Positions 23,291 through 63,803 of a stretch of DNA of 64,000 bases are shown here, piece after piece. Under the pieces are notes generated by a model. It worked only from the letters and a program-made list of their open reading frames with translations, searched no databases and was not told where the DNA came from. Each line of letters opens with the position of its first letter. Within the stretch, counting starts at the first letter, position 1. Origin of the DNA: Candidatus Poribacteria bacterium (GTDB lineage: Bacteria > Poribacteria > WGA-4E > WGA-3G); contig OZ244563.1 in assembly GCA_965217715.1 (NCBI GenBank), forward strand, positions 2,294,165 to 2,358,164, given 5' to 3'. A program made the position numbers and the translations under genes.

Positions 23291-23489
23291 TATAGTGGAT
23301 TTTAGAATTACATTGACACACTCACTCTGTGAATCAACGATGAATGCGCTTTTGGCATTCATCGGGAGAGAACTCCGATTCCCGACTACAAACGAGTCGC
23401 GATTCAGAGATCGCTCCTACAGAATATGAACAATTGTGAAAAACAACAAAACTGATACGTAACTAGCACAAGTTGTATAATTCACTATA
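23291..23489. mobile_element. MITE family B, copy 1 (TATAGTGGAT.. termini), carrying hairpin and REP cargo
   Basis: tatagtggattttagaatt / gtataattcactata; internal REPs ending in ctac at 23363-23420. Confidence 0.72.
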
Positions 23490-23521
23490 ATACAAAGTTC
23501 AATTCCTACAAGAGATTAACT

Positions 23522-24748
23522 ATGCCAAGATTTCAATATGAAGCTCTCACCTATACAGGTGCCACAGTCAACAATACTTTGGAAGCAGACTCAAAATCTG
23601 AACTTATCGCGCAATTGCGGCAGATGGGATACTGGCCAACACAGGTTGTGGAGGAAGGTGAAGCACTTGAAACAAAAACGAAGCGATTATTTAGTATCGG
23701 AACGCGCAAAATCAAATCCGCTGAAGTAGAATTTTTCACCTATCAGTTAGCAGCGTTGATAAGCGCTCACGTTGCACTCCCGCGTGCTTTGGAGGTTACA
23801 TTAGAGCAGATTACGAATCCGGAGTTTAACCGCATTATTTCGCAGGTAAAATATGATGTTGAACACGGCGCAACATTTAACGCTGCATTGGAGCAACATC
23901 CAAAAGTCTTTTCCGATCTCTACGTAAATATGGTTAAGGCTGGGGAAGCTGGTGGTGTGTTGGGAGAAGTCTTAGAACGGTTGGCAGAGTTTGCTGAAAG
24001 ACAACGTGTTCTCAAAAACCAAGTTGTTTCTGCGCTATTTTATCCAACAATTCTTTTTGGATTGATGATAACTGCAATTATCGTGCTAATGATTCTCGTT
24101 ATCCCAAAGTTCACAGAGATGTTTGAAGAGTTTGGTCGTGAACTGCCGCTTCCGACTCAAATCCTCATTTCAATATCGGATATTTTCGCAAATTTTTGGT
24201 GGTTAGGATTGCTCGCAATTAGCATTATCGCAACCGTCCTCCGACGATACCTCCGGACAGAAAACGGAAAGGTATTGCTTGATCGGATTAAGCTTAAAAT
24301 CCCACTTGTCGGGCCCGTTTTTAGCACTTTTGCTATTGTTCGGTTTACGCGTACTATGGCAACACTTTTAGAAAATGGAGTACGCATGCTTCCTGCCTTG
24401 CAAGTTGTTAAAGATACTATTGGGAATAAGGTTTACAGCAACATCATTTCTGAAGCAGAAAAAGAGGTAGAGCAGGGCTCAACACTCTCACGCGAATTAG
24501 GACAAAGCAAGGACTTCCCGACTCTTGTAACTCACATGATTGCTGTAGGTGAAGAATCTGGAGAACCGGTTAGCATGTTGGCAAAGTTGTCTGAATATTA
24601 CGACATGGAAATCAGGAAGAGTCTTGAACGGTTGACAAGTTCCATTAGTCCCTTGGTAATTCTAATTATGGGTTTGCTGATCGGATTTATCGCTGTCGCT
24701 ATGATTCTACCTATTTTTGAAGCACAACAAGTAATAGGTGGTAGTTAA
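23522..24748 (+). CDS. gspF: Type II secretion inner-membrane platform protein GspF/PilC
   Basis: AGEAGG.L..VL, YP-TM, VGEESG, three TM segments. Confidence 0.93.
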   Translation: MPRFQYEALTYTGATVNNTLEADSKSELIAQLRQMGYWPTQVVEEGEALETKTKRLFSIGTRKIKSAEVEFFTYQLAALISAHVALPRALEVTLEQITNPEFNRIISQVKYDVEHGATFNAALEQHPKVFSDLYVNMVKAGEAGGVLGEVLERLAEFAERQRVLKNQVVSALFYPTILFGLMITAIIVLMILVIPKFTEMFEEFGRELPLPTQILISISDIFANFWWLGLLAISIIATVLRRYLRTENGKVLLDRIKLKIPLVGPVFSTFAIVRFTRTMATLLENGVRMLPALQVVKDTIGNKVYSNIISEAEKEVEQGSTLSRELGQSKDFPTLVTHMIAVGEESGEPVSMLAKLSEYYDMEIRKSLERLTSSISPLVILIMGLLIGFIAVAMILPIFEAQQVIGGS

Positions 24749-24891
24749 TGCTAAACGTAAACCTTTGATGTCAATTTCTTTAAACTATCACGCAAGATAT
24801 TTGTCTAAATAGGCACAAGTCCCTTTTATGTATGTTACGGTAAGAAACACCAGAACACAAAATTCTGCAAACTAATAAGGAGTGAAACTAA

Positions 24892-25344
24892 ATGTTAAAA
24901 CAACTTAGAACAGACGAATCGGGGTTAACTCTGATTGAGTTGACAATTGTTATCGTTATTTTAGGTATTTTAGCGGCATTTATTGCACCGAGAATCGCAA
25001 ATGCACCGCAAAAGGCTAATGTTTCCAAAGCAAAAGTAGAAATTGAAAACTTATCAACAGCATTGCAACTTTATGCAACGGAGGTTGGGCAATATCCTAC
25101 CACAGAACAAGGGTTACAAGCGTTATGGCGTCCGCCCAATCCGGCTCCTCCAAATTGGCAGGGCCCTTACCTTCGAAAGCAGCTAACAGACGACCCGTGG
25201 GGTAATCCTTACGTCTACCGCAACCCCGGCACACAATATGGATACGATTTTGACCTCCTATCATACGGTAGAGATGGCAAACTGGGAGGTGTTGATTTTG
25301 ACAAGGACATCGCCAACTGGGTTGAAGAAACGACTGCTCAGTAA
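24892..25344 (+). CDS. gspG: Major pseudopilin GspG
   Basis: G|LTLIEL, YPTTEQGLQAL, WQGPYL, DPWGNPYVY. Confidence 0.95.
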   Translation: MLKQLRTDESGLTLIELTIVIVILGILAAFIAPRIANAPQKANVSKAKVEIENLSTALQLYATEVGQYPTTEQGLQALWRPPNPAPPNWQGPYLRKQLTDDPWGNPYVYRNPGTQYGYDFDLLSYGRDGKLGGVDFDKDIANWVEETTAQ

Positions 25345-25375
25345 ACCTGTAACCTTGAGTAGTAGACGACCCAGC

Positions 25376-26011
25376 ATGCTTTCTAAGTACCGAAACCCAA
25401 TTACACTGTCCAGTGAGGAAGGTTTCAGTCTTATGGAAATAATGTTGGTTTTCGCTATTATTGCGATTTTGTCTACAATGTCTATGCCTGCGATGCGGGG
25501 ATTTGCCGCATCGCGTAGGTTAACGACCTCTGCTCAGGCAATTGCTGATACACTTGCATTTGCGCGAGATATGGCAATTACCGAGCGAACGACGCACCTT
25601 GTCGTATTTGATATTGACACTAATAGATATTGGTTGGCTTCCAGTGAAACTTTTGATGTCCAAAATCCTATCACTTCAGCGGGGAAAGCCGCCAGTCCTA
25701 CAACGTCAATAGATGGGCAAACTGTGATATCCCGCACAGGGGGAATCATGGGCATACCGCAGCCGCTCAGCCAAGGTGTTACCATAGCTGCTTTAGTAAC
25801 AACACATAACGGTGTTACCCAACAAATTGCTGCTGGGGCAAATTACGTTTATTTTACGCCGACTTCAACATCGGCAGATACCATCGTGTATCTCCGAAAT
25901 GTTCGGGAAAAGGTGATGGCAATTGTTGTTGAAGCTACTACCGGACGCGCCAGTGTTGAGCAGATGTCACAGCAACAAGTTCAAACATTAGGTTTAGGGA
26001 ACGATTTGTAA
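25376..26011 (+). CDS. gspH: Minor pseudopilin GspH/FimT-like
   Basis: G|FSLMEI prepilin site; position after gspG; start moved to ATG 25376. Confidence 0.8.
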   Translation: MLSKYRNPITLSSEEGFSLMEIMLVFAIIAILSTMSMPAMRGFAASRRLTTSAQAIADTLAFARDMAITERTTHLVVFDIDTNRYWLASSETFDVQNPITSAGKAASPTTSIDGQTVISRTGGIMGIPQPLSQGVTIAALVTTHNGVTQQIAAGANYVYFTPTSTSADTIVYLRNVREKVMAIVVEATTGRASVEQMSQQQVQTLGLGNDL

Positions 26012-26012
26012 T

Positions 26013-26420
26013 ATGAAAAAACGATCCATTCTCAGTCGTGAAGACGGGTTCACTTTTGCCGAAATCCTTGTAACAATAGCGATTATGGCTGCAGTATTTC
26101 CAGCACTTTTAAAGGTGTTTAGTGATACCTCTCGCAACGTGTCTCTTTCAGATAACCGAGTGACAGCACTCTATCTGCTTGAATCTCAAATAGCAGAAAT
26201 TGAAATGGGCGGTTATCCAGAAGCTGGGCAACAGAGCGATATTATTGGAGGTTCTATCTTTGAGTGGCAATCTGTGGTATCAGATATAGAATCCGATGAA
26301 ATTGAGGGACTCCGGAGGGTTGCGGTAACTATCTCTTGGGAACATTTGGGAAGGTTGCAATCAATCAGTATGTTTACCTATATGGCTGACAGGGAAATCC
26401 AACAAGAACAAAACCAATAA
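26013..26420 (+). CDS. gspI: Minor pseudopilin GspI-like
   Basis: G|FTFAEI prepilin site, FEW, LRRVAVTISW. Confidence 0.8.
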   Translation: MKKRSILSREDGFTFAEILVTIAIMAAVFPALLKVFSDTSRNVSLSDNRVTALYLLESQIAEIEMGGYPEAGQQSDIIGGSIFEWQSVVSDIESDEIEGLRRVAVTISWEHLGRLQSISMFTYMADREIQQEQNQ

Positions 26421-26501
26421 AATCAACACTTGCTTGTATAAAACCAAATTAACGATAATTATTCTGTTTTCGGAGGGTAGGTACGGTTTCTTAACCGTAC
26501 T

Positions 26502-26672
26502 TATGGTGAATTATTGAAATAATTATGCACTTCACTTGTGAATCAACGCCGAATACGCGTGTGGTATTCGGCGGGAGCGATTTCCGAATCGCGACGAAAC
26601 GCCTTGATAGTCGGGAATCGGAGCTCCCGACTACAGTTCAAGAATGTCCAATTAATTCTAAAATCTACCATA
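26502..26672. mobile_element. MITE family B, copy 2, carrying hairpin and REP cargo
   Basis: tatggtgaatta / taattctaaaatctaccata; a further REP lies just outside at 26477-26500. Confidence 0.72.
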
Positions 26673-26729
26673 ATAGATTGGAATCAAGTTAATTTTGGTA
26701 TAAGAAAACGGATGATGGGACGCTGAATT

Positions 26730-27608
26730 ATGAGAAATCTAATAAAGAAGTGTGAAAGTGGTCTTACCCTCGTTGAAATGCTTACTGCCGTGACTATTAT
26801 CGTCATTATGGGTGGTACCACTTATGCTGTCTTCAATACAGCAATAGACGCATACCATCGCACCCAATCGAAATTGATTCAATCACAGCGTTGCCGTGTA
26901 GCTATGCACCACTTAACCACAGATTTAAAACAGATACAAGCTGATACATCTGACGAAATGTTGGTACTCTATTCAGAAGACCGTCCGACTGCATCTGGTG
27001 ATATGGATATACTCAGTTTTGTGACGCTGGTAAAGACTGATCCAGACCCGTTTGTAGCGGAGGTGGATGCTTCTTACATTTTCAGTACACCTCTTTTGAG
27101 CGATGTCCGGCGAGTTGCTTATTATGTCGGTCTGAAGGTGCCTATAGCGGAACTGCGGAGTGAGAATTTCATTCCGCCGCCTTATACTGCATCACAAGAA
27201 CCGAGACAAAACATATCTGGGCAGGAAGAAATCTTTACTCTTTATCGCATTGTGACTACAGCTCTGAATCCAGAATTGGCTATTAACGCATTTATGAATG
27301 CTGGAACGATTCCAACAGTAGATGAAAATGGCATGCCGATTCATTTTAGTATAGATCCGCTAATTGATGGAATTGTTAACTTTGACCTCAAGTATCTTGA
27401 TGAAGAAGCACTGCCTTATGACTCCTGGGAACAGGCAGACGTGATCCCGACGGCTGTCCAAATGCTAATTTCCGTGATAGATGAGGACAGACAAGAGTCG
27501 GTGTCAACGCAAAATTTTGCGCAGAACCCAGGCGTTATAACACCGGGTGCCTTGACACAGGCGACTATGGTGTATTTGCCGCCAAGTGCAAACACTTCTG
27601 AACAATAA
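26730..27608 (+). CDS. gspJ: Minor pseudopilin GspJ-like
   Basis: G|LTLVEM, LTTDL, VAYY, W....IPTAVQM. Confidence 0.8.
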   Translation: MRNLIKKCESGLTLVEMLTAVTIIVIMGGTTYAVFNTAIDAYHRTQSKLIQSQRCRVAMHHLTTDLKQIQADTSDEMLVLYSEDRPTASGDMDILSFVTLVKTDPDPFVAEVDASYIFSTPLLSDVRRVAYYVGLKVPIAELRSENFIPPPYTASQEPRQNISGQEEIFTLYRIVTTALNPELAINAFMNAGTIPTVDENGMPIHFSIDPLIDGIVNFDLKYLDEEALPYDSWEQADVIPTAVQMLISVIDEDRQESVSTQNFAQNPGVITPGALTQATMVYLPPSANTSEQ

Positions 27609-27684
27609 GCTGAACTTCAAAGGATATTGTGGTCATTTCTGCTGCCAATACACTTCACTTCCAAGAAAACGTTGAGGAAAACCG

Positions 27685-29361
27685 ATGAGAAAATACCTTA
27701 ATTATTCATTCAAACATAGAGACATTACTCCCAACCAACAGATGAGCAGAACTACATCAACGGCGTTTTGTTTTTGTGATTCAAACGGATTATCACTTGT
27801 CTCAACGCTTTGGATTTTGACGATCCTCTCTGTCTTAGCAATGCAGCTGCTCTACTCATTTCAGCTTGAAAATAAGGCACGGACCAACTTTGTAGACAGG
27901 GTAAAGTATAACTTTGCAGCTAAAGCCGGATTTGAGTGGGGTGTCGCAAAATTGCGAACCGATGAAACTAATTTCGACTCGCTTGGTGAAACATGGGCGG
28001 AACCGGTTCAGCAACAAATTGATGACGGTGTCCAAATTGGTAGAATGTTAAACTATCAGGTTACCATAACTGATGAAGCGTCAAAAATTAACATCAATTC
28101 CGCACCGGAAGACACTATTCGTAATTTACTCGCTTTTTTAGGGGCCCAACCAGAAAACAATCAAACTGGTGATCTTGCAGCGCGGATCGTTGAAGGACGA
28201 CCGTATCGCACTGTCCGAGATGTCGCAAGTGTTGAAGGGATGACACCAGATGTCCTTTATGGCATACAACAGCAAACAGTAGCGGCACCCGAGACGAGTG
28301 GGTCTGAAGATATTCAGCCGCAAACACAAATAACAATGGGGGCAAATGGTCTCGTTAACATGGCAACGATCTATTCCGTTGATGCGAATACTGATTCTAA
28401 TGGGCAACAAAGAGTTAATATCAATTCTGCAAACGCACAGCAATTAAGACAAATTCAATCTAATAACAATCAATCAGTTTTTTCGCAAGCTGAGGCGAAT
28501 GCGATTATCCAGAAACGCGAATCTGAGGAATTTAAGGGGATTTCTGCACTGTTAGATGTCTCGGCTGTTTCGGATAATGTTTTTAATAATATACGTAATC
28601 AAATCACTGTTGAAACTGCCTCTGTTCAAAATACCGGTTCTGGAAATTCCAATAATCAAGGTGGTGGAAATAATCCATTTGGTGACGATGGAAATAATCC
28701 ATTTGGTGACGATGGAAATAATCAAGGTGGTGGAAATAATCAAGGTGGCGGCAGGGACAATAATGGTAATGGTGGTAATGGTGGTAATGGAAACTCGCTG
28801 CTTAATATTAATACGGCTGACTCAGAAGCACTTCAAGAACTTCAAGGAATTGATGAGGGGATTGCACAACGGATTATCGCACACCGCAATTCCCAAGGAT
28901 CATTCCAAAACATTGACGCCATTAAAGATGTAAGGCTAACAACAGTCCAAGAGTTTGCTGGAATTGCTGATAAAGTAACAGCAAATGGAGGACAAACTGT
29001 AAACGGATTAATCAACATAAATACTGCACCTTTAGAAACTTTACAACTGTTACCGGGGATGGATCAAACAAAAGCGCAAGCAATCATTGACCGCCGTGAA
29101 GAGGAAAGCCCAGACGCACAGAATACATCAGAAGATGCGATTCAAGGCAACCCTTTCAGTGACATTGGGCAACTTTTAGATATTGAAGAAATTGATAATC
29201 AAACATTCCGAGAAGTTGTAGATTGGGTGACCTACCGTTCACAAGGGTATCGTATCGAATCTGCTGCGGTTGATATGAGTGGAAAAGTCATCGCAACGTA
29301 TGTTGGTATCGTTGTGCGAAGTGAAAGCCAATTGAATGTTCCGTATTGGCGACAGGATTAG
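27685..29361 (+). CDS. gspK: GspK-like pseudopilin with multiple ComEA-like helix-hairpin-helix modules
   Basis: G|LSLVSTLWIL (no E5), DEASKININ, repeated (V/L/I)NIN(S/T)A..L..L.G motifs, GN-rich linker; start could be 27742. Confidence 0.85.
   Translation: MRKYLNYSFKHRDITPNQQMSRTTSTAFCFCDSNGLSLVSTLWILTILSVLAMQLLYSFQLENKARTNFVDRVKYNFAAKAGFEWGVAKLRTDETNFDSLGETWAEPVQQQIDDGVQIGRMLNYQVTITDEASKININSAPEDTIRNLLAFLGAQPENNQTGDLAARIVEGRPYRTVRDVASVEGMTPDVLYGIQQQTVAAPETSGSEDIQPQTQITMGANGLVNMATIYSVDANTDSNGQQRVNINSANAQQLRQIQSNNNQSVFSQAEANAIIQKRESEEFKGISALLDVSAVSDNVFNNIRNQITVETASVQNTGSGNSNNQGGGNNPFGDDGNNPFGDDGNNQGGGNNQGGGRDNNGNGGNGGNGNSLLNINTADSEALQELQGIDEGIAQRIIAHRNSQGSFQNIDAIKDVRLTTVQEFAGIADKVTANGGQTVNGLININTAPLETLQLLPGMDQTKAQAIIDRREEESPDAQNTSEDAIQGNPFSDIGQLLDIEEIDNQTFREVVDWVTYRSQGYRIESAAVDMSGKVIATYVGIVVRSESQLNVPYWRQD
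28651..28790 (+). repeat. Coding tandem repeats (NNQGGG / NNPFGDDG / GNG)
   Basis: ggaaataatccatttggtgacgat x2, aataatcaaggtgg x3, ggtaatggt repeats. Confidence 0.9.
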
Positions 29362-29398
29362 CAAGAGGAACAACTAAAAGATAAACGAGGTTTTATAA

Positions 29399-31105: not shown

Positions 31106-31139
31106 AAACAATAAAACTAATCTACTTGCAATTTGCAAT

Positions 31140-31261
31140 TATAGTAAAGCATAAAAAAATAGATATTTTGTCTCCAAATGTTACGTGGATTCTCCTTCGG
31201 TAAGCAAGGTTCCCTAACCTCGCTTGTTCAGAATGTCTTGTTAATTCTATAATCTACTATA
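31140..31261. mobile_element. MITE family B, copy 3, with a degenerate REP
   Basis: tatagtaaagcata / gaatgtcttgttaattctataatctactata (matches the right end of copy 2); gtaagcaaggttccctaacctcgc inside. Confidence 0.62.
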
Positions 31262-31302
31262 GTTGTACATAAAACCTACAAAAGTGGGTAAGGAAACAGA
31301 AA

Positions 31303-35636: not shown

Positions 35637-35812
35637 TAGCAGAATTCCATTACATCCCTTACCTTTGTATATATACTCAGTTGGTCTTCTAAACGCAAAC
35701 TTAAAGGAAGAAATCTGTTTCCAGATAATGTCATAAGTGCTAATGCGGTGGTGTTAAAACATCATCTTGACATGCCAAACACACTTTAGAATCAAATAGT
35801 TGTAAAATTCGA

Positions 35813-39617: not shown

Positions 39618-41333
39618 CTAAGAAACTTTTTTGACATACTGATTCAGCGCCAAGATTGGAAAAACAGAGGCATAAATCGGATCGCTATACCCACCAATTA
39701 CTTCCCAATAAATACCGACACAACTCTCTTGCCAAGAACCATTTTCTCTTTGATTCTTTATGAGAAACTCAACTCCTTTCTCAGCAGCCCGATTTTCTCC
39801 ATCAGCAAGTAAAAGGGCATAAGTACACCATGCTGTCTGTTCCACGGTGCTATCAGTTGGGTTACCAAACATGTCTTCTCCCCAACCACCGTCCACATTT
39901 TGTGTCTGTTCCAACCAACGAATACCACGTGCAATCTCTGGCACATCTCCAAAACCTGCTTTAATGAACGCAACAAGCGCACATGCTGTCCCGTAGGTGC
40001 GTTTTGCTAACCAAAGATCATCCCAGTAGCCATCACGATGAATATTAGCACGAAGCCATTGAACACCACGGTTTACAAACATTTCATTGTCACCGTCTGC
40101 AAGTAATGCCTCAATTGCATGTGCGGTAATGCTAACACATCCAACATCACCTTGCCCAGGTTGATACGTGCTCCAACTGCCATCTGTCCCCTGATTCTGT
40201 TTCAACCACTCAATCCCGCGTTGAATAGCACTGTTTGCATCTGCGGATGTAAGTTTTGCTCGAATTATAGCAAGGGTTGCCAAAGCAGTATCATCTGCAT
40301 CACTCGGAAGAGAACTATCGCGCATGCCAGAAAACGCCCACCCACCGTTGTCATTTTGATGATCAACAAGCCATTGTGCTGCTTTTTTGACCGGCTCCGA
40401 GTTATCGGTATAATTTGCTTCAATCTCTGTTAAGGCGATAATGCTAAGGGCTGTGTCCCACACGTTGAGATTTATGGCTTCTCTACAGCCACCGTCTGGA
40501 TTCTGCGTGGCACGCAGCCATTCAATACCTTTTTCAATTAACAGTTGAATCTCAGAATCATTACTACTATTGTTGTGGAATTCAATCAGCGCCAAAACAG
40601 AGAGTGCAGTGATATAATTCACACGAAACCAACTGCCATCACTCAAAACACGTGCTTTCAACCAAGCCACCAACGCATTTATGATTTCAAAACGTTTTGT
40701 TGTATTTAATTCTATTAAAATAAAGACTGGAACTAAAGTATGTTGTTCAGCAATAAACAACTCTTCAAAAAGAGATGTGTTAAAAAGGTCTACGGGAGGA
40801 AGTTTGTTTCTCGGAGGCTTCAACAAGACACGCAGAATTGGGATGCGCGTTAAGAGTTTGACAAGTCTCATCAACGGCAATGCTTTTTTCGAAACGGTCA
40901 ATTTTTGCCAGTCAAATCGATTGAAAGATGCGTAGGAAAGTTTAACTAAAGCGAGGTCAAGCGGGGACTGTGGAATGCAGGACAGTGTTTCCTGAAGCTG
41001 CGGTGTTGACACATTTTCAGATGCTTGTTCCAAAATCAATTGCGTAAACAACGTTGCATCCGGATTTGATTGATTTGCAGTATCCAATCCCCACGCACCA
41101 TCTTCGTTCTGGTTTTTTATGAACCAATCAATCAACGCTTTTTCTGGTGTTTGTCCTTGCGCAAGTTGAATCCAAGCATAAGCACAAGACGGAAACGTAC
41201 TTGAGGAAAGTTGTCCTTCAAAGTTTCCGTCCACATGCTGCTGTGTCAGTAATAAATCAATAGCATGTGCTAAGGCAGATGTAGTCTGTTCCTTAATTTT
41301 TTCTGTTAGTTGGGGAGGTTGGTTTTGTCTCAT
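39618..41333 (-). CDS. Squalene-hopene cyclase-like class II terpene cyclase
   Basis: DADDTA (DXDD) motif, VWDTAL, about seven QxxDGxW (QW) repeats, YGT, STVEQTAW. Confidence 0.85.
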   Translation of the reverse strand: MRQNQPPQLTEKIKEQTTSALAHAIDLLLTQQHVDGNFEGQLSSSTFPSCAYAWIQLAQGQTPEKALIDWFIKNQNEDGAWGLDTANQSNPDATLFTQLILEQASENVSTPQLQETLSCIPQSPLDLALVKLSYASFNRFDWQKLTVSKKALPLMRLVKLLTRIPILRVLLKPPRNKLPPVDLFNTSLFEELFIAEQHTLVPVFILIELNTTKRFEIINALVAWLKARVLSDGSWFRVNYITALSVLALIEFHNNSSNDSEIQLLIEKGIEWLRATQNPDGGCREAINLNVWDTALSIIALTEIEANYTDNSEPVKKAAQWLVDHQNDNGGWAFSGMRDSSLPSDADDTALATLAIIRAKLTSADANSAIQRGIEWLKQNQGTDGSWSTYQPGQGDVGCVSITAHAIEALLADGDNEMFVNRGVQWLRANIHRDGYWDDLWLAKRTYGTACALVAFIKAGFGDVPEIARGIRWLEQTQNVDGGWGEDMFGNPTDSTVEQTAWCTYALLLADGENRAAEKGVEFLIKNQRENGSWQESCVGIYWEVIGGYSDPIYASVFPILALNQYVKKVS

Positions 41334-41411
41334 CGTTCATATTTTAGAAATGAAATGTGAAAGGAGTATAACATATTTCAGTGAGTTAGACAACTTTATT
41401 CTGAAACGCTC

Positions 41412-41656
41412 CAGGGTTATTTAGTTTTCGGTTTTTCTATTATATTTTATCACAAACGTTAATACTTCATTATAGTATCGTAGGTTGGGTTGAACCGCAG
41501 GTGAAACCCAACATTTACAGCCTGTAAAGGGTTACATGTTGGGTTTCGTGCCTCAACCCCGACAAATGCCGAAAAGCGCATTTAGCGTTGATTCCCTACA
41601 GTATAAACTCTCAGTAACGCTCATCAGTCGAAAATTCTTAAAACTAAATAACCCTG
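41412..41656. mobile_element. MITE family A, copy 2, carrying a REP doublet and a hairpin insert
   Basis: cagggttatttagtttt / aaaactaaataaccctg; flanks gaaacgctc / caaacgctc. Confidence 0.88.
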
Positions 41657-41726
41657 CAAACGCTCCCAGAGCCATTCAGTTTGAGTTTTTTCAATTTGTG
41701 GGTTGGGGGTCACTCCTATAAAAGAA

Positions 41727-41785
41727 ATCGGGGTTACAAACCCGATGAATACCTTAAGGCATTCATACCGTTGATGCCCTCCTAC
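41727..41785 (-). repeat. GTAG REP interrupted by an AATCAACG-type hairpin
   Basis: atcggggttacaaa[cccgatgaatac..gcattcataccgttgatg]ccctcctac. Confidence 0.75.
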
Positions 41786-48406: not shown

Positions 48407-48407
48407 A

Positions 48408-50175: not shown

Positions 50176-51265
50176 CATCTTACTTATTGCCATAGTAACA
50201 GCGTCAGCATGTGCGTTACCCGGTGTATTCTTGGTGCTACGCCGAATGACGTTGATGAGCGATGCGATTAGCCACGCTATTCTTCCCGGTATAGTTCTTG
50301 CGTTTTTTCTGACGCATAGCCTTTCGTCGCCGTTACTGATTCTCGCTGCCACTGTGACCGGTGTACTCACTGTTGTTTTCGTCGAATTGCTACAAAAAAC
50401 GAAACTCGTGAAAGAGGATGCCGCAATCGGATTGACTTTCCCTGCTCTTTTCAGCATCGGGGTAATTCTCATTTCCCGATACTCAAGTAATATCCATCTT
50501 GATTTGGATGCGGTTCTTCTCGGTGAACTCGCCTACGCCCCACTCAACCGATTGGAGATTTCTCGCTACGATCTGGGGCCTACATCACTGTATGTGATGA
50601 GCGGAATGCTTATATTGAATCTCCTCTTTATTCTGATATTCTACAAAGAATTAAAGTTAGCAACGTTTGATGCAAGTTTAGCCGCGACATTAGGATTCGC
50701 GCCTGCTCTTATCCATTATGGATTGATGACATTAGTTTCTATGACGACGGTAGGGGCATTTGATGCAGTCGGTTCTATTTTAGTTGTCGCACTTATCGCC
50801 GGTCCGCCTGCTACCGCTTATCTGATGACTGATAGTCTCGCACGGATGCTAATTCTAAGTGTTGTTATAGGATGTGTTAATGCTGTGACAGGCTATTGGC
50901 TTGCATACATTTTTGATGTCTCAATTGCGGGAACTATCGCGACGATGACATTTCTTGTTTTCGGACTTATTTTTATGATGGTCCCAAATCGCGGACTCAT
51001 CGCAATTGCGCGCAGACACATCCGCCAAAAATGGGAGTTTGCACAGACGATGCTTGTTATCCATCTCTTAAATCACGAAGGACTTCCAGAAGCACACGAA
51101 GAATCTGAGATAGCACACCTTCACGAGCATCTCCGATGGGAACCGACATTCGCTACACGGGTTGTTAAGTATGCCCTAAATAACCGATATGTGTCGCAAG
51201 AGACAACGCAGCTAATGCTAACAGATCGGGGACGTTCCGTCGCGCAACAGGCGCTTGTGCAATAA
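50156..51265 (+). CDS. Metal ABC transporter permease (TroD-like) with a C-terminal wHTH-like extension
   Basis: SDAISHAILPG, multiple TM segments, C-terminal HLLNHE...LTDRG. Confidence 0.9.
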   Translation: MIQDHLDILLIAIVTASACALPGVFLVLRRMTLMSDAISHAILPGIVLAFFLTHSLSSPLLILAATVTGVLTVVFVELLQKTKLVKEDAAIGLTFPALFSIGVILISRYSSNIHLDLDAVLLGELAYAPLNRLEISRYDLGPTSLYVMSGMLILNLLFILIFYKELKLATFDASLAATLGFAPALIHYGLMTLVSMTTVGAFDAVGSILVVALIAGPPATAYLMTDSLARMLILSVVIGCVNAVTGYWLAYIFDVSIAGTIATMTFLVFGLIFMMVPNRGLIAIARRHIRQKWEFAQTMLVIHLLNHEGLPEAHEESEIAHLHEHLRWEPTFATRVVKYALNNRYVSQETTQLMLTDRGRSVAQQALVQ

Positions 51266-51405: not shown

Positions 51406-51424
51406 CGTGCTATGTTCAATAATC

Positions 51425-51453: not shown

Positions 51454-51483
51454 GAAATTATCAATACATAAGTGGAGGGAGTC

Positions 51484-52077
51484 ATGGCAATTAGTGCAGT
51501 CCAAACCTATCTAAGCCCAGAAGAATACATTACTTTAGAACGTAAGACGATCCCTGATGCTGACACTGTCAGAAGTGAATACGTTAAAGGGAAAATTGTC
51601 GCTATGTCTGGTGCAAGTCGCGTGCATAATCTTATTTCAGGCAATATTTTTGGCGAACTCCGCAATCGCTTAAAAGGCAGCGGATGTGAAACCTATAAGA
51701 GCGAAATGCGTGTAAGCACACCTTGCACTTCATCCTATTTCTATCCAGATGTCGTTGCCGTTTGTGATGAACCACGTTTTGAAGACGATGTTTTTGACAC
51801 ACTCCTCAATCCAATCATTATTGTAGAAGTACTATCTCCAAGTACGGAGACTTATGATAGAGGTGAAAAATTATTACACTACAGACAACTTGAATCCTTG
51901 AAAGAATACATCCTTGTATCACAAGATAGGGTATATGTTGAACGATATCTCCGAAAACAGGAGGAATGGGGTTATACTTCCTTTCAAGAACTTGATGAAG
52001 TTCTTCCGCTTACCTCTATTCAGTGCGAATTACCACTTCAGGAAATATATGAAAACGTTAAATTCCGTGAAAGGTAA
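51484..52077 (+). CDS. Uma2 (DUF820) family endonuclease-like protein
   Basis: [30 protein letters not shown]. Confidence 0.92.
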
Positions 52078-52088
52078 AGACTCTAACT

Positions 52089-54431: not shown

Positions 54432-54458
54432 GTGCAAAACATCTTCCGATTACATGCG

Positions 54459-55649: not shown

Positions 55650-55716
55650 TCTCATACCTCAACTTTTACTTCAAAGTTTAGAAAGTTCCAGTTACAATTT
55701 TAACTGGACATTCTGA

Positions 55717-57369: not shown

Positions 57370-57396
57370 AATGTTATGCTCCTTTTAATGTCAAGT

Positions 57397-59799
57397 TTAG
57401 GGATCAACCTCAATGTCCACATACAAATCAGAAATTTCTTTGCGAAGTCTGTGAATCGGCGACAAATCTTGAATTGGGTTGTTCTTAATATGTAGAACTC
57501 TTAAATACTTCAACTTTTCAATAGTGCTAATATCCTCAATTTGGTTATCCGACAAAAATAACCTTCTTAAGTTTGTCAATTCTGCAAGCGGTGTGATGTC
57601 ACGGATTTGATTTTTGGTTAGTTCTAAGCTTGTGAGTTGTGTCAACTCTGTAAGTGGGGTAATATCACTAACCTCACTGTCCTCAAGCGATAATTGCGTA
57701 AGGTGTGGAAATCCGGTAAGAAGTGAAACAAGGTCATTTAAATCACGAAGGTTTTTACCACCAAAACCTAACCATGTCAATCTTGTTAAACTCACAAGTG
57801 GTGAGAGATCGTTAATTTGATTACCACCAAGCGACAATGACGTAAGTCGTGTTAATTCAGCAAGAGGTGTGATGTCCCTAATTTGATTTCTGCTTAGATT
57901 CAAACCTGTCAGTTGTCTTAATTCAATAAACTGCTGCGTATCGCTAATTTGATTACCGCTAAGATGCAAGATCGTAAGATTTGTAAGTTCAGTAAGGGGT
58001 GTAATGTCTTGAATTTGATTATCGTCAATGAGTAATCGTCTAAGTGATTTTATAGTTGCAATATTCGTAAGATCACTAATCTGATTTCCTCTTATCCATA
58101 GCGTATTAAGTTGTGATAATTTTTCAAGTGGAGGCACATTAGTTATTTTATTATTTTCAAGCCTTAAAGAATGAAGCTGTGTTAATTCAGTTATCTGGGT
58201 AATAACACTAATTTGATTTTTATTCATTTGTAGGTAACTGAGCTGCTTCATATTTTGGATTGGTGTAATATCACTAATTTGGTTTTCATCAAGCCATAAT
58301 GATCGAAGGTTTCTCAAGTTCTTGATAGGTGTGATGTCGGTAATTTCATTACTGTTAAGATATAGCCAGGTTAATTGCGTTAATTCTGCAATGGATGCTA
58401 TGTCGGCAATTTGATTGTTCATGAGATACAGCTCAGTTAGCAGTGTTAATCCAGCGAGTGGTGCAACATTGCAGATCTTATTATTCGTAAGATCTAACGT
58501 TTTTAGTTGTGTCAAATTAGCAAGCGGTTCGATATCGCTAATCTCATTATTTCTGAGATCTAACGTTTTTAGTTGTGTCAAATTAGCAAGCGGTTCGATA
58601 TCACTAATCTCATTATTTCTGAGATCTAAAGTTTTTAGTCGTGTTAATTTTCCAAGTGGTGTGATGTCACTAATTTTATTATCATTTAGGGATAGTGATG
58701 TAAGGTAAGGCAAACCTTCAAACAACGAAACAAAAGGTGTCAAATCTCGAATCTCAGTCTCTCTAAGTGCAAAGTACGAAAGTCGCTTTAATCCACTAAT
58801 AACTCCAAAGTCTTTGATTTGGTTTCCTCCAAGCGATAAATTCCTAAGCTGAGTCAATTCAGATAAAGGTGAGATATCGCCAATCTGATTGCTGCCAAGA
58901 TATAAGCTCATCAGTTGTTTCATCTCCGCAAATGGTGTGATGTCCCGGATTTCATTATTACCAATAGATAAGGTGTGCAGTTGCGGCAAATTTACTACCG
59001 GTGTAAGGTCTATTATTTTATTATTCCATAAAGATAAACTTTCCAATTGTACAAGTCCTACCAAAGGTGTGATGTCTTGGATTCTATTTCTTATAAGGGT
59101 TAAATCTGTAAGTTGTTTCAATCCTCTGAGCGGGGTGACATCACTAATTTTATTTCCCTCGAGATTTAGGGTGTCAAGTTGTATTAACCCAGACAAAGGT
59201 GTAATATTGCTAATTTCATTATACCTGAGATTTAATTCCTTGAGTTGTATTAATCCTGTGAGCGGCGCAATATCACGTATTTTGTTGCTATTAATTTCTA
59301 ATTTCCTCAGTTGTGTTAACTCCTTGAGAGGTGTTATATCTTTAATACGATTTTCATATAGCGTTAACTCCCTAAGTTGTGATAATCCTTCAAGTGGCGT
59401 AAGATCACTGATTTGATTGTTATCAAGTGATAACCTACTGAGTTGTGTTAATCCAGAAATGGGTGTGAGGTCCATAATTTGATTAGAATTTAGGTGTAAA
59501 GTCGCCAGATTTCTTAATCCTGCAAGAGGTGTGATATCTGCAATTTGACCACCAATAAGTGATAAACTTGTTAAACCCGTCATTTTTTCTATACCTGTCA
59601 AATCGCTGATGCCTTCAGTCCATGTAGACAACGTTTCTAATTTTTCTAACTTCTTTTGTGTGATAGGTTCATCAGGAGATAACACTAATGCCTCCCGAAC
59701 AGCAGCAGCTAAATTCTGATCGGGAAACTCTACAGGTTCCGGTGGTGAACAACTGACAAATACAATGAGAAACAGAAAAGGCAGGCAAATTTGTTTCAT
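57397..59799 (-). CDS. Internalin-type leucine-rich repeat lipoprotein (longer paralog)
   Basis: Lipobox FVSC, FPDQNL cap, about 30 LRRs; near-exact 66-bp tandem repeat at 58490-58638. Confidence 0.93.
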   Translation of the reverse strand: MKQICLPFLFLIVFVSCSPPEPVEFPDQNLAAAVREALVLSPDEPITQKKLEKLETLSTWTEGISDLTGIEKMTGLTSLSLIGGQIADITPLAGLRNLATLHLNSNQIMDLTPISGLTQLSRLSLDNNQISDLTPLEGLSQLRELTLYENRIKDITPLKELTQLRKLEINSNKIRDIAPLTGLIQLKELNLRYNEISNITPLSGLIQLDTLNLEGNKISDVTPLRGLKQLTDLTLIRNRIQDITPLVGLVQLESLSLWNNKIIDLTPVVNLPQLHTLSIGNNEIRDITPFAEMKQLMSLYLGSNQIGDISPLSELTQLRNLSLGGNQIKDFGVISGLKRLSYFALRETEIRDLTPFVSLFEGLPYLTSLSLNDNKISDITPLGKLTRLKTLDLRNNEISDIEPLANLTQLKTLDLRNNEISDIEPLANLTQLKTLDLTNNKICNVAPLAGLTLLTELYLMNNQIADIASIAELTQLTWLYLNSNEITDITPIKNLRNLRSLWLDENQISDITPIQNMKQLSYLQMNKNQISVITQITELTQLHSLRLENNKITNVPPLEKLSQLNTLWIRGNQISDLTNIATIKSLRRLLIDDNQIQDITPLTELTNLTILHLSGNQISDTQQFIELRQLTGLNLSRNQIRDITPLAELTRLTSLSLGGNQINDLSPLVSLTRLTWLGFGGKNLRDLNDLVSLLTGFPHLTQLSLEDSEVSDITPLTELTQLTSLELTKNQIRDITPLAELTNLRRLFLSDNQIEDISTIEKLKYLRVLHIKNNPIQDLSPIHRLRKEISDLYVDIEVDP

Positions 59800-59943
59800 G
59801 AGACAAAATTCTCCATCAAATTAGATTGGTTGCATTATAGCAGTATATTCAGATGCTGTCTATAATCTGATTTGATTATTTTCATTGTAGAACCGAATCC
59901 AATATCTCTTGCAGATTATATCAGAATCCGCTATAGTTGTGAT

Positions 59944-60855
59944 ATGACACCAACAAACCAAACACTCACAGCAATTGACGGAATACAGATAGGGCATGCT
60001 ACCGATGCAACTGCCCGAACAGGATGTACCGTAATCCTCTGTCCAGATGGAGCAACAGCAGGGATTGATGTGCGTGGTGCTGCTCCCGGCACACGAGAAA
60101 CAGAAGCGATTCGTCCCGGACGCTTAATCCAAAAAGCGCATGCAGTCCTATTAACAGGTGGCAGTACCTTCGGATTGGATGCGGCAGATGGTGTCGTCCA
60201 ATACCTTGAAGAAAAGGATGTAGGATTTCCAGCAGGTACTGTGCGTGTGCCGATTGTTCCCGCTGCTGTCATTTTTGACCTGCATGTTGGTGACCCAAAG
60301 GTACGTCCTGACAGAGAAATGGGGTATCAGGCATGTCTGAATGCTACAGATAAACCAGTAGCGATGGGTGCTGTTGGTGCGGGAATAGGGGCAACGGTTG
60401 GCAAGGCACCAGGTGTTACGCCTTCTCAAGGCGGTGTAGGTTCAGCGTGTAATCATCTTGATAACGGTTTAATCGTTGCTGCCCTTGTAGTTGTAAATGC
60501 GTTGGGGAACGTTGTGAATCCCACAACTGGAGAAATTATTGCAGGTGGAAAAGAAAACGGTAGTTTCGTGGACATCACAGAACGCCTATTAGATGCATGT
60601 ATCGTTCCCGGCACGAATACAACCATCGGTGTTGTTGCCACAAATGCCACGCTTTCTGTTGCTGAAGCAACACGGGTGGCAGAAATGGCACACGACGGTA
60701 TGGCGCGCGCAATACGTCCATCACACACTATGTTTGATGGTGATACACTTTTTACCCTTGCCACAGGTGCACATACCGGCAGCAGTGTAAATACTATCGG
60801 TATCCTCGCCGCAGAGGTAGTCGCTGAGGCAATTGTCGCTGCTGTAACCACCTAA
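59944..60855 (+). CDS. P1/S58 family peptidase (DmpA-like)
   Basis: GCTV, VRGAAPGTRET, LTGGS, TTIGVVATNA, DGDT. Confidence 0.9.
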   Translation: MTPTNQTLTAIDGIQIGHATDATARTGCTVILCPDGATAGIDVRGAAPGTRETEAIRPGRLIQKAHAVLLTGGSTFGLDAADGVVQYLEEKDVGFPAGTVRVPIVPAAVIFDLHVGDPKVRPDREMGYQACLNATDKPVAMGAVGAGIGATVGKAPGVTPSQGGVGSACNHLDNGLIVAALVVVNALGNVVNPTTGEIIAGGKENGSFVDITERLLDACIVPGTNTTIGVVATNATLSVAEATRVAEMAHDGMARAIRPSHTMFDGDTLFTLATGAHTGSSVNTIGILAAEVVAEAIVAAVTT

Positions 60856-62249
60856 ATCGGTTTGCCCTGCATTGCATCTGGTATATCAATACCGAATTCT
60901 TTTAGCACTGTGGGTGCGATGTCGTATATGCTTGTTGCGGGGACAAGTCCACGCGTTTGTCTGCCATCTTTGATTATAAACATGCCCATCTCAGCATGGT
61001 TACAATCGTCAGGCCCTGTGTCATTTTCGTAGGTATAAATGCTGTTGTATCCAACACTGCCCACCGAACGCCAAAAGAGGTTGCCGAAGTAAACAATAAG
61101 GTCAGGTGGAATGTTGCGGCACTCGCGATATACCTCCTCTGGCTTAAAAACGCGTGTATTGATGTTTTGTCCCGATTCATCTACGATTGCTTCAAGTTGC
61201 GTCTTCAACTCATCCCGAATACTTTCGTAATCTTGCGCCTTGACTATCCCGTTAGGTTCTCTTCCTTCAATATTTATGAAGATGCGGGCGTAATATCCGC
61301 CTTCACCCCACGCCTTTGTCTGCTGCCAATCCACCATGTCCGTAGTAAATCGGGTAATACCTTGCGGTTTAGTTTTTAGCGTCAGGTAACCGTGTTTCTG
61401 TAGCCATTTGTTGACACAGATACCGCCATCCATCCTTTTCGCCCCGTGGTCGGATACAACCATAACAGTGGTGTCATCATCAACACATGCCAACATCTGT
61501 CCCAGTTCTTCATCAAGTGTGCGATAGTAGTTTTGCATTGTATCAGCAAACGGTGAATTTAGTTCATACTTAGGATGCGTTTTATCCCAAAACCGCCAGA
61601 ATGCGTGATGCAGACGGTCAGAACCCATTTCCACCATCATAAAGAAATCCCATGCTTTTTTCTCAAGCAGATAACGTGCTAATTTGAATCGTGCGCGTGT
61701 CATTTTGAGGAGCTGCTGTTCCAACTCCGCCCGTTTATCAGTGCGAAAATTTGGAATATCAATCATGTAGTCGGGGGCAACTTGCGCGATTTCACGTGCA
61801 AGCCTCGGTGGAAATGTCCACTGTAGGTTAGATTTCGTCAACGGGGAATTGAGATCGCATGGAGTGAGAAAACTGGTAACCATCCACCCCGGAAACGGCT
61901 TGGCGGGGTAGGTGAGCGGCACGCCCAAAACAACAGAACGTTTTTGCTCCAACCCAAGTAAGTCCCAGAGTGGCGGCACTTGCACAACGTGCGCGTTGGC
62001 AATGGTCAGCGCATCATAGGAATAATCCGAACGGTTACGAAAGCCGTAGATACCGAGTTCGCCCGGATCTCGACTTGTCATCATGCACATCCACGCTGGT
62101 ACCGTAATAGGTGGTATTGTGCTTTCTAATTGCCCATAGATACCCTCTCGCATCAAGCGGTGTGTATTGGGCATGTCATCTTTGAATGCCTCAAAGACCA
62201 ATTCAGGTGCTGCACAATCCCAACCGATAACAAGGACCCGCTTTTTCAT
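60852..62249 (-). CDS. Alkaline phosphatase superfamily / type I phosphodiesterase
   Basis: VIGWDCA, STIPPITVPAW, DRLHH, VSDHG, DDCNH; start MKKRVL. Confidence 0.9.
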   Translation of the reverse strand: MKKRVLVIGWDCAAPELVFEAFKDDMPNTHRLMREGIYGQLESTIPPITVPAWMCMMTSRDPGELGIYGFRNRSDYSYDALTIANAHVVQVPPLWDLLGLEQKRSVVLGVPLTYPAKPFPGWMVTSFLTPCDLNSPLTKSNLQWTFPPRLAREIAQVAPDYMIDIPNFRTDKRAELEQQLLKMTRARFKLARYLLEKKAWDFFMMVEMGSDRLHHAFWRFWDKTHPKYELNSPFADTMQNYYRTLDEELGQMLACVDDDTTVMVVSDHGAKRMDGGICVNKWLQKHGYLTLKTKPQGITRFTTDMVDWQQTKAWGEGGYYARIFINIEGREPNGIVKAQDYESIRDELKTQLEAIVDESGQNINTRVFKPEEVYRECRNIPPDLIVYFGNLFWRSVGSVGYNSIYTYENDTGPDDCNHAEMGMFIIKDGRQTRGLVPATSIYDIAPTVLKEFGIDIPDAMQGKPI

Positions 62250-62259
62250 GCTTTTTCCT

Positions 62260-63612
62260 TTATGCCCATCTCGGATTTCTGCCACCAAACCGCTGCTCGC
62301 TAATGTTCCACAATTCTGTCAATCCCAGTTGTCGAATGTGGTCCAAACCGGGTAAGCACGGATCGTTTATTCGGGTTAACCACTGCTGCAGTTCCGCTTC
62401 TAATTCTTCTCGGAGCGTTTGTGAATTAGGGTCGTCAATGAGATTGTTCATTTGATATGGGTCGTTATCGTTATCGTAAAGCAGCCAACCTGTTCCGTCA
62501 TGATGGCGTGCATACGTGTAGCGATGTGTTCGGACACCGCGCCATTCGCGGAGACCGAAATTGAACCCTTCACTTCCGTGTAATGGGATTTCAAGCAGGA
62601 CTGATTGCGGTTCGTCAATTGTTTTACCGAGCATTGCGTCTGAAAGGTCAACGCCCTCAACGCCCTCTGGAATTGGTAGGTCGCATAAGGATAGCATTGA
62701 TGGCATAAAATCAACGAGGCTGAGTAAAGTGTCGCGAGTAACGCCTGCGGGGATTCTGCGGGGCCAACGAATCATAAAAGGGATACGACTTGATTCGTCC
62801 CACGGACGTTCTTTTCTGTTATGCCCGTGGCTACCGAGCATATCTCCATGGTCAGATGTATAAACAAGGATAGTATCTTCAGCAATACCGATTTCATCAA
62901 GGGCATCCATCATGCGCCCGAGGTTTTCATCTAAAGCGGTGATATGGGCGTAGTAGCCTGATATATCCTTTCGCGTGGCAGGTGTATCTACCGCGTTCGG
63001 ACGTAATTGAATTTCCTCTGGTGGATACATCTCTTTATACCGCTCTGGCACATGTTCATACGGATTATGTGGCGGTCCCCAACTCACATAAAGACAGAAA
63101 GGTTCGTCAGCATGGTCTCTGCAGTATTTAATCGCCTCATCGGTTTGGAATTCCGGTTCGTAGCCTTCAATCTGCATCTTATTCCCATCGGAATCGTGGT
63201 ACGGAGCATTGAAATAGTTATGATGGCAGTTCCATCCGACCCAATGATCAAAACCGAACCGCATCTCAGACGTAATAAACTTATCTCTTGGCATTCCACC
63301 GAGATGCCACTTACCAATATAGCCAGTTGCATATCCAGCATCTTTAAATACCTGTGCAATTCCCGTTTCAGACAACGGAAGCGGCAAATCGTTGGAAACT
63401 GCCTTGTGGCTTAACGGGTGTTTGCCGGTCATCAGGCATCCGCGCGCAGGCACACATATCGGGACGTTGGTAAAGGTGTTTGGCAAGAACATCCCCTCTT
63501 GTGCAAGTTTATCCATAGCCGGTGTCTGCACTTGCGGGTTACCTGCACACCCGACATCACATTGACGGTGTTGATCACCAAAAACAAAGATTAAATTGGG
63601 TTTTCGTTCCAT
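62260..63612 (-). CDS. Sulfatase (formylglycine-dependent)
   Basis: CVPAR (CxPxR), GKWHL, PPHNPY, TSDHG. Confidence 0.95.
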   Translation of the reverse strand: MERKPNLIFVFGDQHRQCDVGCAGNPQVQTPAMDKLAQEGMFLPNTFTNVPICVPARGCLMTGKHPLSHKAVSNDLPLPLSETGIAQVFKDAGYATGYIGKWHLGGMPRDKFITSEMRFGFDHWVGWNCHHNYFNAPYHDSDGNKMQIEGYEPEFQTDEAIKYCRDHADEPFCLYVSWGPPHNPYEHVPERYKEMYPPEEIQLRPNAVDTPATRKDISGYYAHITALDENLGRMMDALDEIGIAEDTILVYTSDHGDMLGSHGHNRKERPWDESSRIPFMIRWPRRIPAGVTRDTLLSLVDFMPSMLSLCDLPIPEGVEGVDLSDAMLGKTIDEPQSVLLEIPLHGSEGFNFGLREWRGVRTHRYTYARHHDGTGWLLYDNDNDPYQMNNLIDDPNSQTLREELEAELQQWLTRINDPCLPGLDHIRQLGLTELWNISEQRFGGRNPRWA

Positions 63613-63803
63613 TTTTTCTCCTATTTCTAATACTCATAAGGTTACGCAGTTTTTACGATTTATTCAATAATTATGACTAAATGGTGCAATTTTTAGCAGA
63701 GTTCTGAGTTTCCAGCGTGTTTACAATCAACATAGTCTGTAGGTTGGGTGGAGCTTGTGAAACCTAAATCAACGCTATGAATGCACTGTTGGCATTCAGC
63801 GGG

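Follow-up and report, generated by a model that had tools for sequence, protein, structure and literature searches.

A 64,000-nucleotide stretch of a “Candidatus Poribacteria” genome (GenBank assembly GCA_965217715.1, contig OZ244563.1, positions 2,294,165 to 2,358,164; here, the window) carries five copies of a hairpin of about 35 nucleotides (nt), each of which lies within another repeat. These copies raise the question of whether so small a hairpin is a mobile DNA unit in its own right or whether it is a structured RNA motif, a passenger of its host repeats, or a product of copying between imperfect palindromes. A preliminary description of the window had proposed a minimal hairpin that transposes as single-stranded DNA and parasitizes repetitive extragenic palindromic (REP) sequences at runs of G, or else a small structured RNA motif. 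Our analysis suggests that the five copies belong to a family of noncoding, nonautonomous DNA microelements of about 34 nt that move or are copied as folded single-stranded DNA and are recognized in trans, with a Y1 HUH enzyme as the leading candidate, a reading for which we hold belief and doubt to be about equal. It seems to rank among the smallest known mobile DNA elements.

All five copies were found again at the positions and on the strands originally given for them. The pattern ATCAACG-N18-32-CGGG has seven matches in the window, compared with 0.32 expected, and none of 100 shuffled sequences reached seven; five of the matches are the known copies. The other two (50219 to 50256 on the minus strand and 62710 to 62751 on the plus strand) lack the family hairpin and were rejected as chance matches. 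Folded as single-stranded DNA, copies 1, 2, and 5 form strong hairpins (z about -4), and copies 3 and 4 are weak when taken alone (Table 1). In the whole genome analysed (G000; 5.66 Mb in 16 contigs, 43% G+C, with a main contig, C1, of 5.5 Mb), the same pattern matches 363 times, 288 times with an inner hairpin of -5 kcal/mol or lower. A looser definition by the hairpin core, which does not require the trailing GGG, yields 432 units on C1, compared with no match in the reversed-pattern control. These are evenly spread, with 190 on one strand and 242 on the other, and 390 of them lie outside open reading frames of at least 100 amino acids, frames that take up 84% of the contig. No origin, terminus, or usual two-replichore pattern is apparent on C1 from the cumulative GC skew or from the strand bias of genes, which could reflect either a lineage without skew or a rearranged assembly.

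The unit of the 34-nt class consists of YRA-ATCAACG, an 8-nt arm, a 7-nt loop (GCNTWTG), the complementary arm, and a final C, and it is usually followed directly by GGG. Base pairing of the final C and the first flanking G with the CG of ATCAACG extends the hairpin to 10 bp. The commonest 8-nt arms are CCAAATGC, CTGAATGC, CCAAATAC, CAGCATGC, and TCAAATGC, and loop positions 16, 17, 19, 21, and 22 are conserved in 92 to 106 of 110 distinct copies. When sites were located by the hairpin core alone, with the flanks left free, the upstream AATCAACG was found at 324 to 351 of 366 sites, and C follows the stem at 351 of them. Because AATCAACG is kept at these core-only sites, the asymmetric 5' tail is a genuine part of the element and not an artifact of the search pattern. 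The two ends of the element differ (AATCAA... versus ...C), and terminal inverted repeats are absent. A second hairpin subfamily, ATCAACG-GTATGAATGCC-ATTTA-GGCATTC-CCC, occurs genome-wide (for example, near 652.5 kb of C1), and copy 4 of the window is a variant related to it. Double-headed palindromes of the form AATCAACG-hairpin-CGTTGATT, in which the left tail stands on both strands and the GGG side is absent, were observed at about 148.24 kb of C1 and at two loci (L138 and L153) of a relative, G023.

Compensatory changes in the stems, which had been noticed among the window copies, are borne out by larger sets. Among 250 copies chosen by their ends only, without a hairpin filter (114 distinct sequences, with about 2.7 matches expected by chance), the eight inner pairs are paired in 91.1% of cases, compared with 80.2 ± 0.56% in 1,000 column shuffles, none of which reaches the observed value; because the copies are related, shuffle counts here and below are not probabilities. 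With slid partners, inner pairing falls to 28 to 43%, and the top three column pairs by mutual information are true stem pairs. In a separate alignment of 34 sequences, hand-picked for diversity from hairpin-filtered matches, 5 of 10 pairs change on both sides when only this genome and its relatives are represented. With three more genera added (34 sequences from four genera), the number of such pairs rises to 8 of 10, and pairing holds in 96.7% of cells, compared with 84.6 ± 1.0% in shuffled alignments (0/500 shuffles reach the observed value). The closing pair, one of these eight, hardly varies within this genome; in a second genus, many copies have CA..TG in place of CG..CG. Five genomes searched for tandem arrays of the CA..TG variants gave none, the single match being unrelated. 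A common subfamily has a fixed C.T mismatch at the outer variable pair.

The host sequences are several families of GTAG-tagged hairpin repeats, which we refer to as REPs. For 266 of 308 copies, the 14-mer just 3' of the element is repeated elsewhere, compared with 17% of random 14-mers. The element had been described as occurring only inside other repeats; this is nearly true, but both flanks are unique in 19 of the 308 copies, about 6 of which are spurious matches. It is carried by 104 of 361 REP-A units, 35 of 425 REP-B units, and 38 of 144 REP-C units, at one fixed position in each family. Insertion sites comprise GTAGG tags, the loops and feet of many unrelated REPs, and the 3' end and loop of the element itself, and the orientation is fixed relative to a following G or GGG.

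Insertion junctions were defined by comparison with empty sites, i.e., paralogs in which the same flanks adjoin, which were found by an indexed search. An empty paralog exists for 245 of 301 copies; 85 of these junctions are clean insertions without target duplication, and the other 160 are not clean. In the CCAA left-junction class (81 copies with empty sites), the empty site reads xCGGG. The tallies listed for this class, which cover 62 of the 81 copies and 26 distinct contexts, all give an exact 34-nt insertion, with a boundary that is ambiguous by 1 to 3 nt and that always allows a cut at C|G (the bar marks the cut or junction). The hosts of this class include the 3' end of the element itself (...GGC|GGG), so that insertion there results in tandem arrays; the loop of a REP flanking one IS200-type gene (TAC|GGGACT), a site that is used in a relative too; and the foot of another REP (ATC|GGGG). 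In the relative G045, the element is followed by GCC instead of GGG in yet another REP (C|GCC). Copies of the ATCAACG-GTATGAATGCC subfamily are inserted at GC|GTATG in the main-family loop, once more at C|G, and multilayer nests with further hairpins occur.

Most of the 160 unclean junctions replace the A of a GTAGG tag. In the GTGA left-junction class, which comprises 117 copies with empty sites, the empty site reads GTAGG, and the A of the tag is replaced by GA-ATCAACG...CG. In related unclean classes, GTTAGG loses TA, ACGGTAGG loses GGTA, and GTAGG-TT-GGG loses TT. The right junction always lies in CG|GG, and it is the left junction that varies. The preliminary view that excision of the element roughly restores an intact REP is borne out, although the restoration is usually inexact: copy 4 is a clean insertion (its empty paralogs read GGGCTT in 11 cases and GGGGTT in 10), whereas copies 1 and 2 have GTGA...CGGG in place of GTAGG.

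Several observations indicate that the unit behaves independently of any one host. The 301 copies occupy 190 distinct exact contexts, and the main stem variants recur across a wide range of host classes; CCAAATGC, for instance, is found in at least nine right-flank classes. Among 17 clusters of similar flanks (at least 3 copies, with at most 6 mismatches in 60 flank positions), 13 hold more than one stem variant, and within these clusters both arms and the loop change together. On C1, the units form 301 singletons, 51 doublets, 5 triplets, 1 quadruplet, and 2 quintuplets, in which adjoining units often have different stems. Taken together, the evidence for insertion of the element as a discrete unit of 34 nt is good, although it is indirect. 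One five-unit head-to-tail array of 34-nt units, at about 501.86 to 502.03 kb of C1, repeats a unit that has arms from two variants (CCAAATGC with GCATTCAG), that is, a mismatched hairpin amplified in tandem.

The element is widespread within one family of Poribacteria. A scan for the exact 18-mer of the commonest variant, with each prokaryotic species represented by one genome, gave at least 91 loci. Almost all of the loci listed belong to “Ca. Poribacteria” metagenome-assembled genomes (MAGs), together with one “uncultured bacterium” and one Steroidobacteraceae MAG, whose single locus (L058) could be a mis-binned poribacterial contig or a transfer. By the strict pattern, the element is present in 38 of 40 genomes of the genus, with 0 to 385 copies per genome and 0 to 1 match in the reversed-pattern controls. 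A covariance model built from 34 copies, which gives presence per genome and not copy numbers, detected the element in 92 of 99 genomes sampled from the family (by genus, 37/37, 52/57, 2/2, 1/1, and 0/2) and in none of 51 genomes sampled from eight further families of this phylum. Different species share the same discrete stem variants, and stem pairing, loop, and 5' tail are all conserved across the family. No description of the element, or of REPs or microrepeats in Poribacteria, was found in the literature covered, which excludes most subscription journals, and element strings gave only unrelated matches in full texts of papers. In contigs of public metagenomes, the summed depth over three repeat-bearing bins of the window (23164 to 23827, 26484 to 27147, and 41092 to 41755) is tens to a thousand times that of neighboring bins (for example, 11930 versus about 12 in run X6); therefore, both the element and its host REPs reach extreme abundance in the sponge samples concerned.

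Candidates for an enzyme acting in trans are present in this genome. Two genes of REP-associated tyrosine transposases (RAYTs) and two IS200-type Y1 genes were detected (Table 1), each flanked by arrays of its own REP family (GTGGGAGGGGTTTACAACCCCGAT, GTAGGTTGGGTTGAGCTTGCGAAACCCAAC, CCGCTCCAGCGGAGCGATATG, and GTAGGGACGATATGTTTATAG, in the order of the table). A fifth, RAYT-like match (C1 1058751 to 1059201, minus strand) consists of two pieces of 133 and 56 bits and may be broken. According to passages of PMC8266576, TnpA-REP cleaves single-stranded REPs at C|T, either 5' or 3' of the hairpin; for a Marinomonas enzyme, the dinucleotide that is cut follows from its complementarity to the final bases of the tetranucleotide lying 5' of the palindrome, and a GTAG-to-GTGG change shifted cleavage to CC. 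The tetranucleotide 5' of the variable stem of our element is AACG, so that this guide rule predicts C|G, which would match both the site allowed by the clean insertions and the 3' boundary of the element itself. By this analogy, HUH/RAYT-type mobilization is plausible.

We propose that the unit would move, or be copied, as folded single-stranded DNA and be recognized by a hairpin-specific enzyme supplied in trans, for which a Y1 HUH nuclease-ligase of the RAYT or IS200 type is the likeliest candidate. AACG would act as the guide, its last two bases setting the complementary C|G site of cleavage and joining. The precise right junction (stem-C|G) would arise by strand transfer, and the less regular left junction would arise by repair or by a second cut. 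Embedded copies would then be carried along as host REPs or REP doublets multiply. A bolder version of this proposal, which we advance only tentatively, is that the element is a hyperparasite of REPs and RAYTs and the smallest complete HUH substrate known, in which AACG would guide a resident Y1 enzyme and hops of single-stranded DNA at C|G, into the element itself as well as into tags, loops, and feet of other REPs, would disable GTAG tags. If this is true, two C|G sites flanking the hairpin would allow cassette exchange, and stems would thus turn over faster than flanks.

A number of observations weigh against the proposed mobilization by a Y1 enzyme. A copy next to an HUH (Y1) gene had been suggested as a check, but no copy is closer than 700 nt to any of the four Y1 genes that this genome has; a RAYT match in the relative G021 has one copy about 150 nt upstream. 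Neither model gives a Y1 match in two relatives, G023 (47 copies, single contig) and G009 (23 copies), and two others, G055 (174 copies) and G013 (76 copies), lack a RAYT above the cutoff. Among 40 congeneric genomes, which are kin and not independent, co-occurrence is mixed: copy number rises as RAYT genes above the cutoff become more numerous (Spearman 0.59) and shows no such relation to PF01797 matches (0.12). The former correlation is confounded because RAYTs accompany REPs and REPs are the host sites; REP-A is scarce in genomes without the element. The junctions themselves pose two further difficulties: the loss of target bases at left junctions (A, TA, or GGTA) is unexpected for precise HUH transposition, and one guide cannot explain both cuts because the left dinucleotide (C|C or T|G) is not C|G.

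No presence/absence polymorphism at a unique locus was seen in contigs of public runs. Two joints in such contigs skip 34 to 35 nt of the window (23330 to 23365 with A between, and 41559 to 41595 with AA between), but they most likely derive from paralogous REPs because their sides are only 22 to 24 nt long. The nearest relatives are only about 82 to 87% identical in genes. In one of them, G002, the repeat-bearing intergenic stretches around copies 1 and 2 are largely or wholly without counterpart; that of copy 1 (about 23287 to 23487 of the window) has none, and the flanking matches abut. Long identical flanks are common to many copies, and much of the copy number is certainly due to hitchhiking with host REPs and REP doublets. 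Of the original proposal, parasitism of REPs at G runs stands, whereas guidance by an HUH enzyme is conjectural, considering the absent Y1 link and the unclean majority of junctions.

The relation of the element to known insertion sequences (ISs) was also considered. G021 has a 1.73-kb element of the IS200/IS605 family in at least four copies (loci L108, L112, L116, and L119) that are 91 to 95% alike. The possibility that our element is the end of a known IS was rejected for this one, the only multicopy IS of this family examined, as its ends are unrelated (CCCTACCTAAAGGTAGGGG-type hairpins). Another relative, G008, has 21 PF01797 matches, many of them paired fragments of 85 and 65 amino acids with an in-frame TAG; this looks like an IS200-type burst whose copies all have the same break or recoded stop.

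Irregular left junctions fit template switching at least as well as transposition, and so do the chimeric hairpins that combine arms of two variants (CCAAATGC with GCATTCAG and CTGAATGC with GCATGCTG), which point to recombination or template switching. In this account, which we regard as possible but doubtful, there would be no dedicated enzyme, and template switching or short-patch gene conversion would take place between quasi-palindromes: the nascent strand would leave at GG(G), copy the element elsewhere, and return by microhomology of 1 to 2 nt, with self-templating keeping the arms complementary. It accommodates the constant right junction and a left junction that loses 0 to 4 target bases, as well as the recurrence of a GTGA left end at both GTAGG and GTTAGG targets, which is expected if GT is the return microhomology. 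It also accommodates the hairpins swapped within identical flanks, the double-headed forms, and the persistence of elements in genomes without a Y1 gene. However, the clean CCAA-class tallies listed, all of exactly 34 nt and all compatible with C|G, are very regular for microhomology. In addition, the nonpairing 5' tail and five loop positions are conserved across genera, which implies a sequence-specific recognition that template switching does not need, and the element was not found in the sampled genomes of the eight sister families. Alternatively, the element may be a passive passenger that long ago entered a few lineages of REPs or MITEs (miniature inverted-repeat transposable elements), or belonged to them all along, and whose copy number would only mirror the amplification of these composite repeats by RAYTs, so that the seemingly empty REPs would be sister lineages. 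We consider this improbable. It would account for the large classes that are specific to one host family and fixed in position, for the long identical flanks, for the unclean junctions (if the empty sites are not ancestral), for the intergenic stretches of copies 1 and 2 that lack a counterpart in a relative, and for the way in which copy number tracks RAYT and REP abundance. Yet a passenger should not occur in 190 distinct contexts, which range from unrelated REP families through loops and feet to a few unique sequences, and it explains neither self-insertion, nor adjoining units with different stems, nor the flank clusters with several hairpin variants, nor the clean 34-nt differences in 26 distinct CCAA-class contexts.

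A role for the host is the explanation to which we assign the least weight, and it seems highly improbable. Here, the hairpin would be a structured RNA motif (a stabilizer, processing site, or binding site) or a DNA site of a host protein, conserved for its function and not for mobility. Covariation of the stem, combined with conservation of loop and tail, is what classically marks a recognized hairpin, the hairpin is kept across a whole bacterial family, and almost all units lie outside coding sequence. The part of the preliminary description that suggested a small structured RNA motif nevertheless found no support: Rfam 15 gave no match at the gathering threshold for the whole window and none at an E value of 1 or lower for positions 23200 to 23500, which include copy 1. 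Relative to codirectional neighboring genes, 95 lie on the same strand and 124 on the opposite one, and divergent intergenic regions hold 61 arrays compared with 38 in convergent regions (515 regions of each kind), so that there is neither an orientation preference nor an enrichment between convergent genes. Nor does the hairpin resemble an intrinsic terminator, as GGG and no T run stands on its 3' side and there is no orientation with the upstream gene. Contigs from an RNA library cover the repeats, but DNA runs show the same repeat-driven peaks. An RNA motif is unlikely. More generally, copy numbers from 0 to 385 among 40 congeners are hard to square with an essential function, and tandem and nested copies are poorly explained by any function. 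Mobility of a folded, trans-recognized DNA unit therefore remains the reading that we prefer, at the even balance of belief and doubt stated above.

Table 1. Element copies and host repeats (positions in the window) and Y1 genes (positions on contig C1 of G000)
Feature	Position	Strand	Structure or score	Fold energy, z	Site or context
Copy 1	23330..23366	+	TGA-ATCAACG, stem ATGAATGC, loop GCTTTTG, stem GCATTCAT, CGGG	-10.5 kcal/mol, z -4.1	GTAGG tag of REP-A unit; junction class GTGA...CGGG versus GTAGG
Copy 1 host REP doublet	23364..23420		REP-A remainder GGGAGAGAACTCCGATTCCCGACTAC (plus strand) and inverted REP-B (GTCGCGATTCAGAGATCGCTCCTAC, plus-strand reading)		
Copy 2	26539..26575	+	TGA-ATCAACG, stem CCGAATAC, loop GCGTGTG, stem GTATTCGG, CGGG	-11.3 kcal/mol, z -3.95	GTAGG tag of REP-B unit; GTGA...CGGG replaces GTAGG
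Copy 2 host REP doublet	26573..26634		REP-B remainder GGGAGCGATTTCCGAATCGCGAC and inverted REP-A GTCGGGAATCGGAGCTCCCGACTAC		
Uninterrupted REP of copy 3 host type	41480..41514	+	GTAGGTTGGGTTGAACCGCAGGTGAAACCCAAC		Beside the interrupted REP
Copy 3	41558..41595	-	Weakly folding; 8-nt loop and mismatched stem	-4.4 kcal/mol, z -1.09	Between GTAGG and GGGTTGAGGC of REP type flanking RAYT gene Y1d; intact host form GTAGG-TT-GGGTTGAG
Copy 4	41741..41778	-	Atypical: GGC-ATCAACG-GT-ATGAATGCC..GGTATTCAT-CGGG	-5.1 kcal/mol, z -2.32	Clean 35-nt insertion into GTAGGAGG|GGTTTGTAACCCCGAT, REP type flanking RAYT gene Y1c
Copy 5	63765..63803	+	36-nt subfamily: TAA-ATCAACG-CTATGAATGC..GCATTCAG-CGGG	-8.2 kcal/mol, z -3.98	3' end of REP GTAGGTTGGGTGGAGCTTGTGAAACCTA; intact form ...CTA-TA-GGTG
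RAYT gene	404127-404540	+	NCBIfam, 124 bits (cutoff 80)		
RAYT gene	2183086-2183532	+	NCBIfam, 198 bits (cutoff 80)		
IS200-type Y1 gene	973649-973993	+	79 bits (cutoff 55)		
IS200-type Y1 gene	2965656-2966000	-	75 bits (cutoff 55)		

Among known systems, REP/REPIN-RAYT systems resemble the element in several respects. Both consist of short extragenic hairpins with hundreds of noncoding copies (288 to 432 units here), and both have a conserved unpaired motif directly 5' of the palindrome, compensated stem variation, and a loop whose bases matter. By analogy, action as single-stranded DNA and dependence on a trans factor may be shared as well, and the guide rule of the 5' tetranucleotide, as given in passages of PMC8266576, predicts the C|G found here. 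However, the tag of the element is AATCAACG and not GTAG or CGTC, GTAG belonging to the interrupted host REPs. Moreover, no RAYT gene in this genome is flanked by the element (there is no REPtron), the element is single or in direct tandem and not in inverted doublets, it lives inside other REPs and often destroys their GTAG tag, and it is present in genomes without a detectable RAYT.

A second group of similar size is known from cyanobacteria. The small dispersed repeats SDR1 to SDR8 of Nostocaceae, which Elhai et al. reportedly described in 2008, are said to measure 21 to 27 nt, and the same authors are said to have favored an RNA intermediate. The SDRs are reported to be tiny hairpins with compensatory changes, nested in themselves and in other repeats, as is our element. 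A citing passage reports them as not found outside Nostocaceae, and they are unmentioned in Delihas 2011. Our element differs in being 34 nt long and poribacterial, and the evidence presented here leans to DNA, although the two are set apart by description only. A cyanobacterial origin of the element, and with it membership in the Nostocaceae SDRs, was rejected, as almost all of the 18-mer loci listed belong to “Ca. Poribacteria” MAGs.

IS200/IS605 elements, as described in passages of PMC8266576, also combine a hairpin with a guide; they insert strand- and orientation-specifically next to a short target without duplication, and duplication is likewise lacking at the 85 clean junctions of our element. 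Our element, however, has one hairpin and not two subterminal ones, is noncoding and at least tenfold smaller, has mostly unclean junctions, and has ends unlike those of the IS in G021. REP hairpins are also the preferred insertion sites of REP-targeting ISs such as IS1397, which, judging from reference titles in PMC3116915, targets the palindromic units in BIMEs (bacterial interspersed mosaic elements); this is a full-size IS with its own transposase, in contrast to a noncoding unit of 34 nt. Like MITEs, the element is nonautonomous, intergenic, and multicopy, but it lacks terminal inverted repeats and target-site duplications and is 3 to 10 times smaller than the MITEs of PMC3184786. Thus, it lacks the defining features of REPs, SDRs, IS200/IS605 derivatives, and MITEs. 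It is an element of the REP or small-dispersed-repeat kind, in a new phylum and with an unusually explicit junction rule.

There is as yet no settled view of how very small repeats, such as REPs and the small dispersed repeats of cyanobacteria, multiply. The poribacterial element offers evidence on this question that can be read directly, namely, a fixed 34-nt unit, dozens of clean pairs of filled and empty sites, a candidate C|G cut site predicted by a published guide rule, and self-nesting. In hundreds of copies, it breaks short-read assemblies and confuses read mapping in sponge metagenomes. Its variants are common to about a hundred species of an uncultivated family of sponge symbionts, in which one selfish repeat inside another bears on what limits REP populations.

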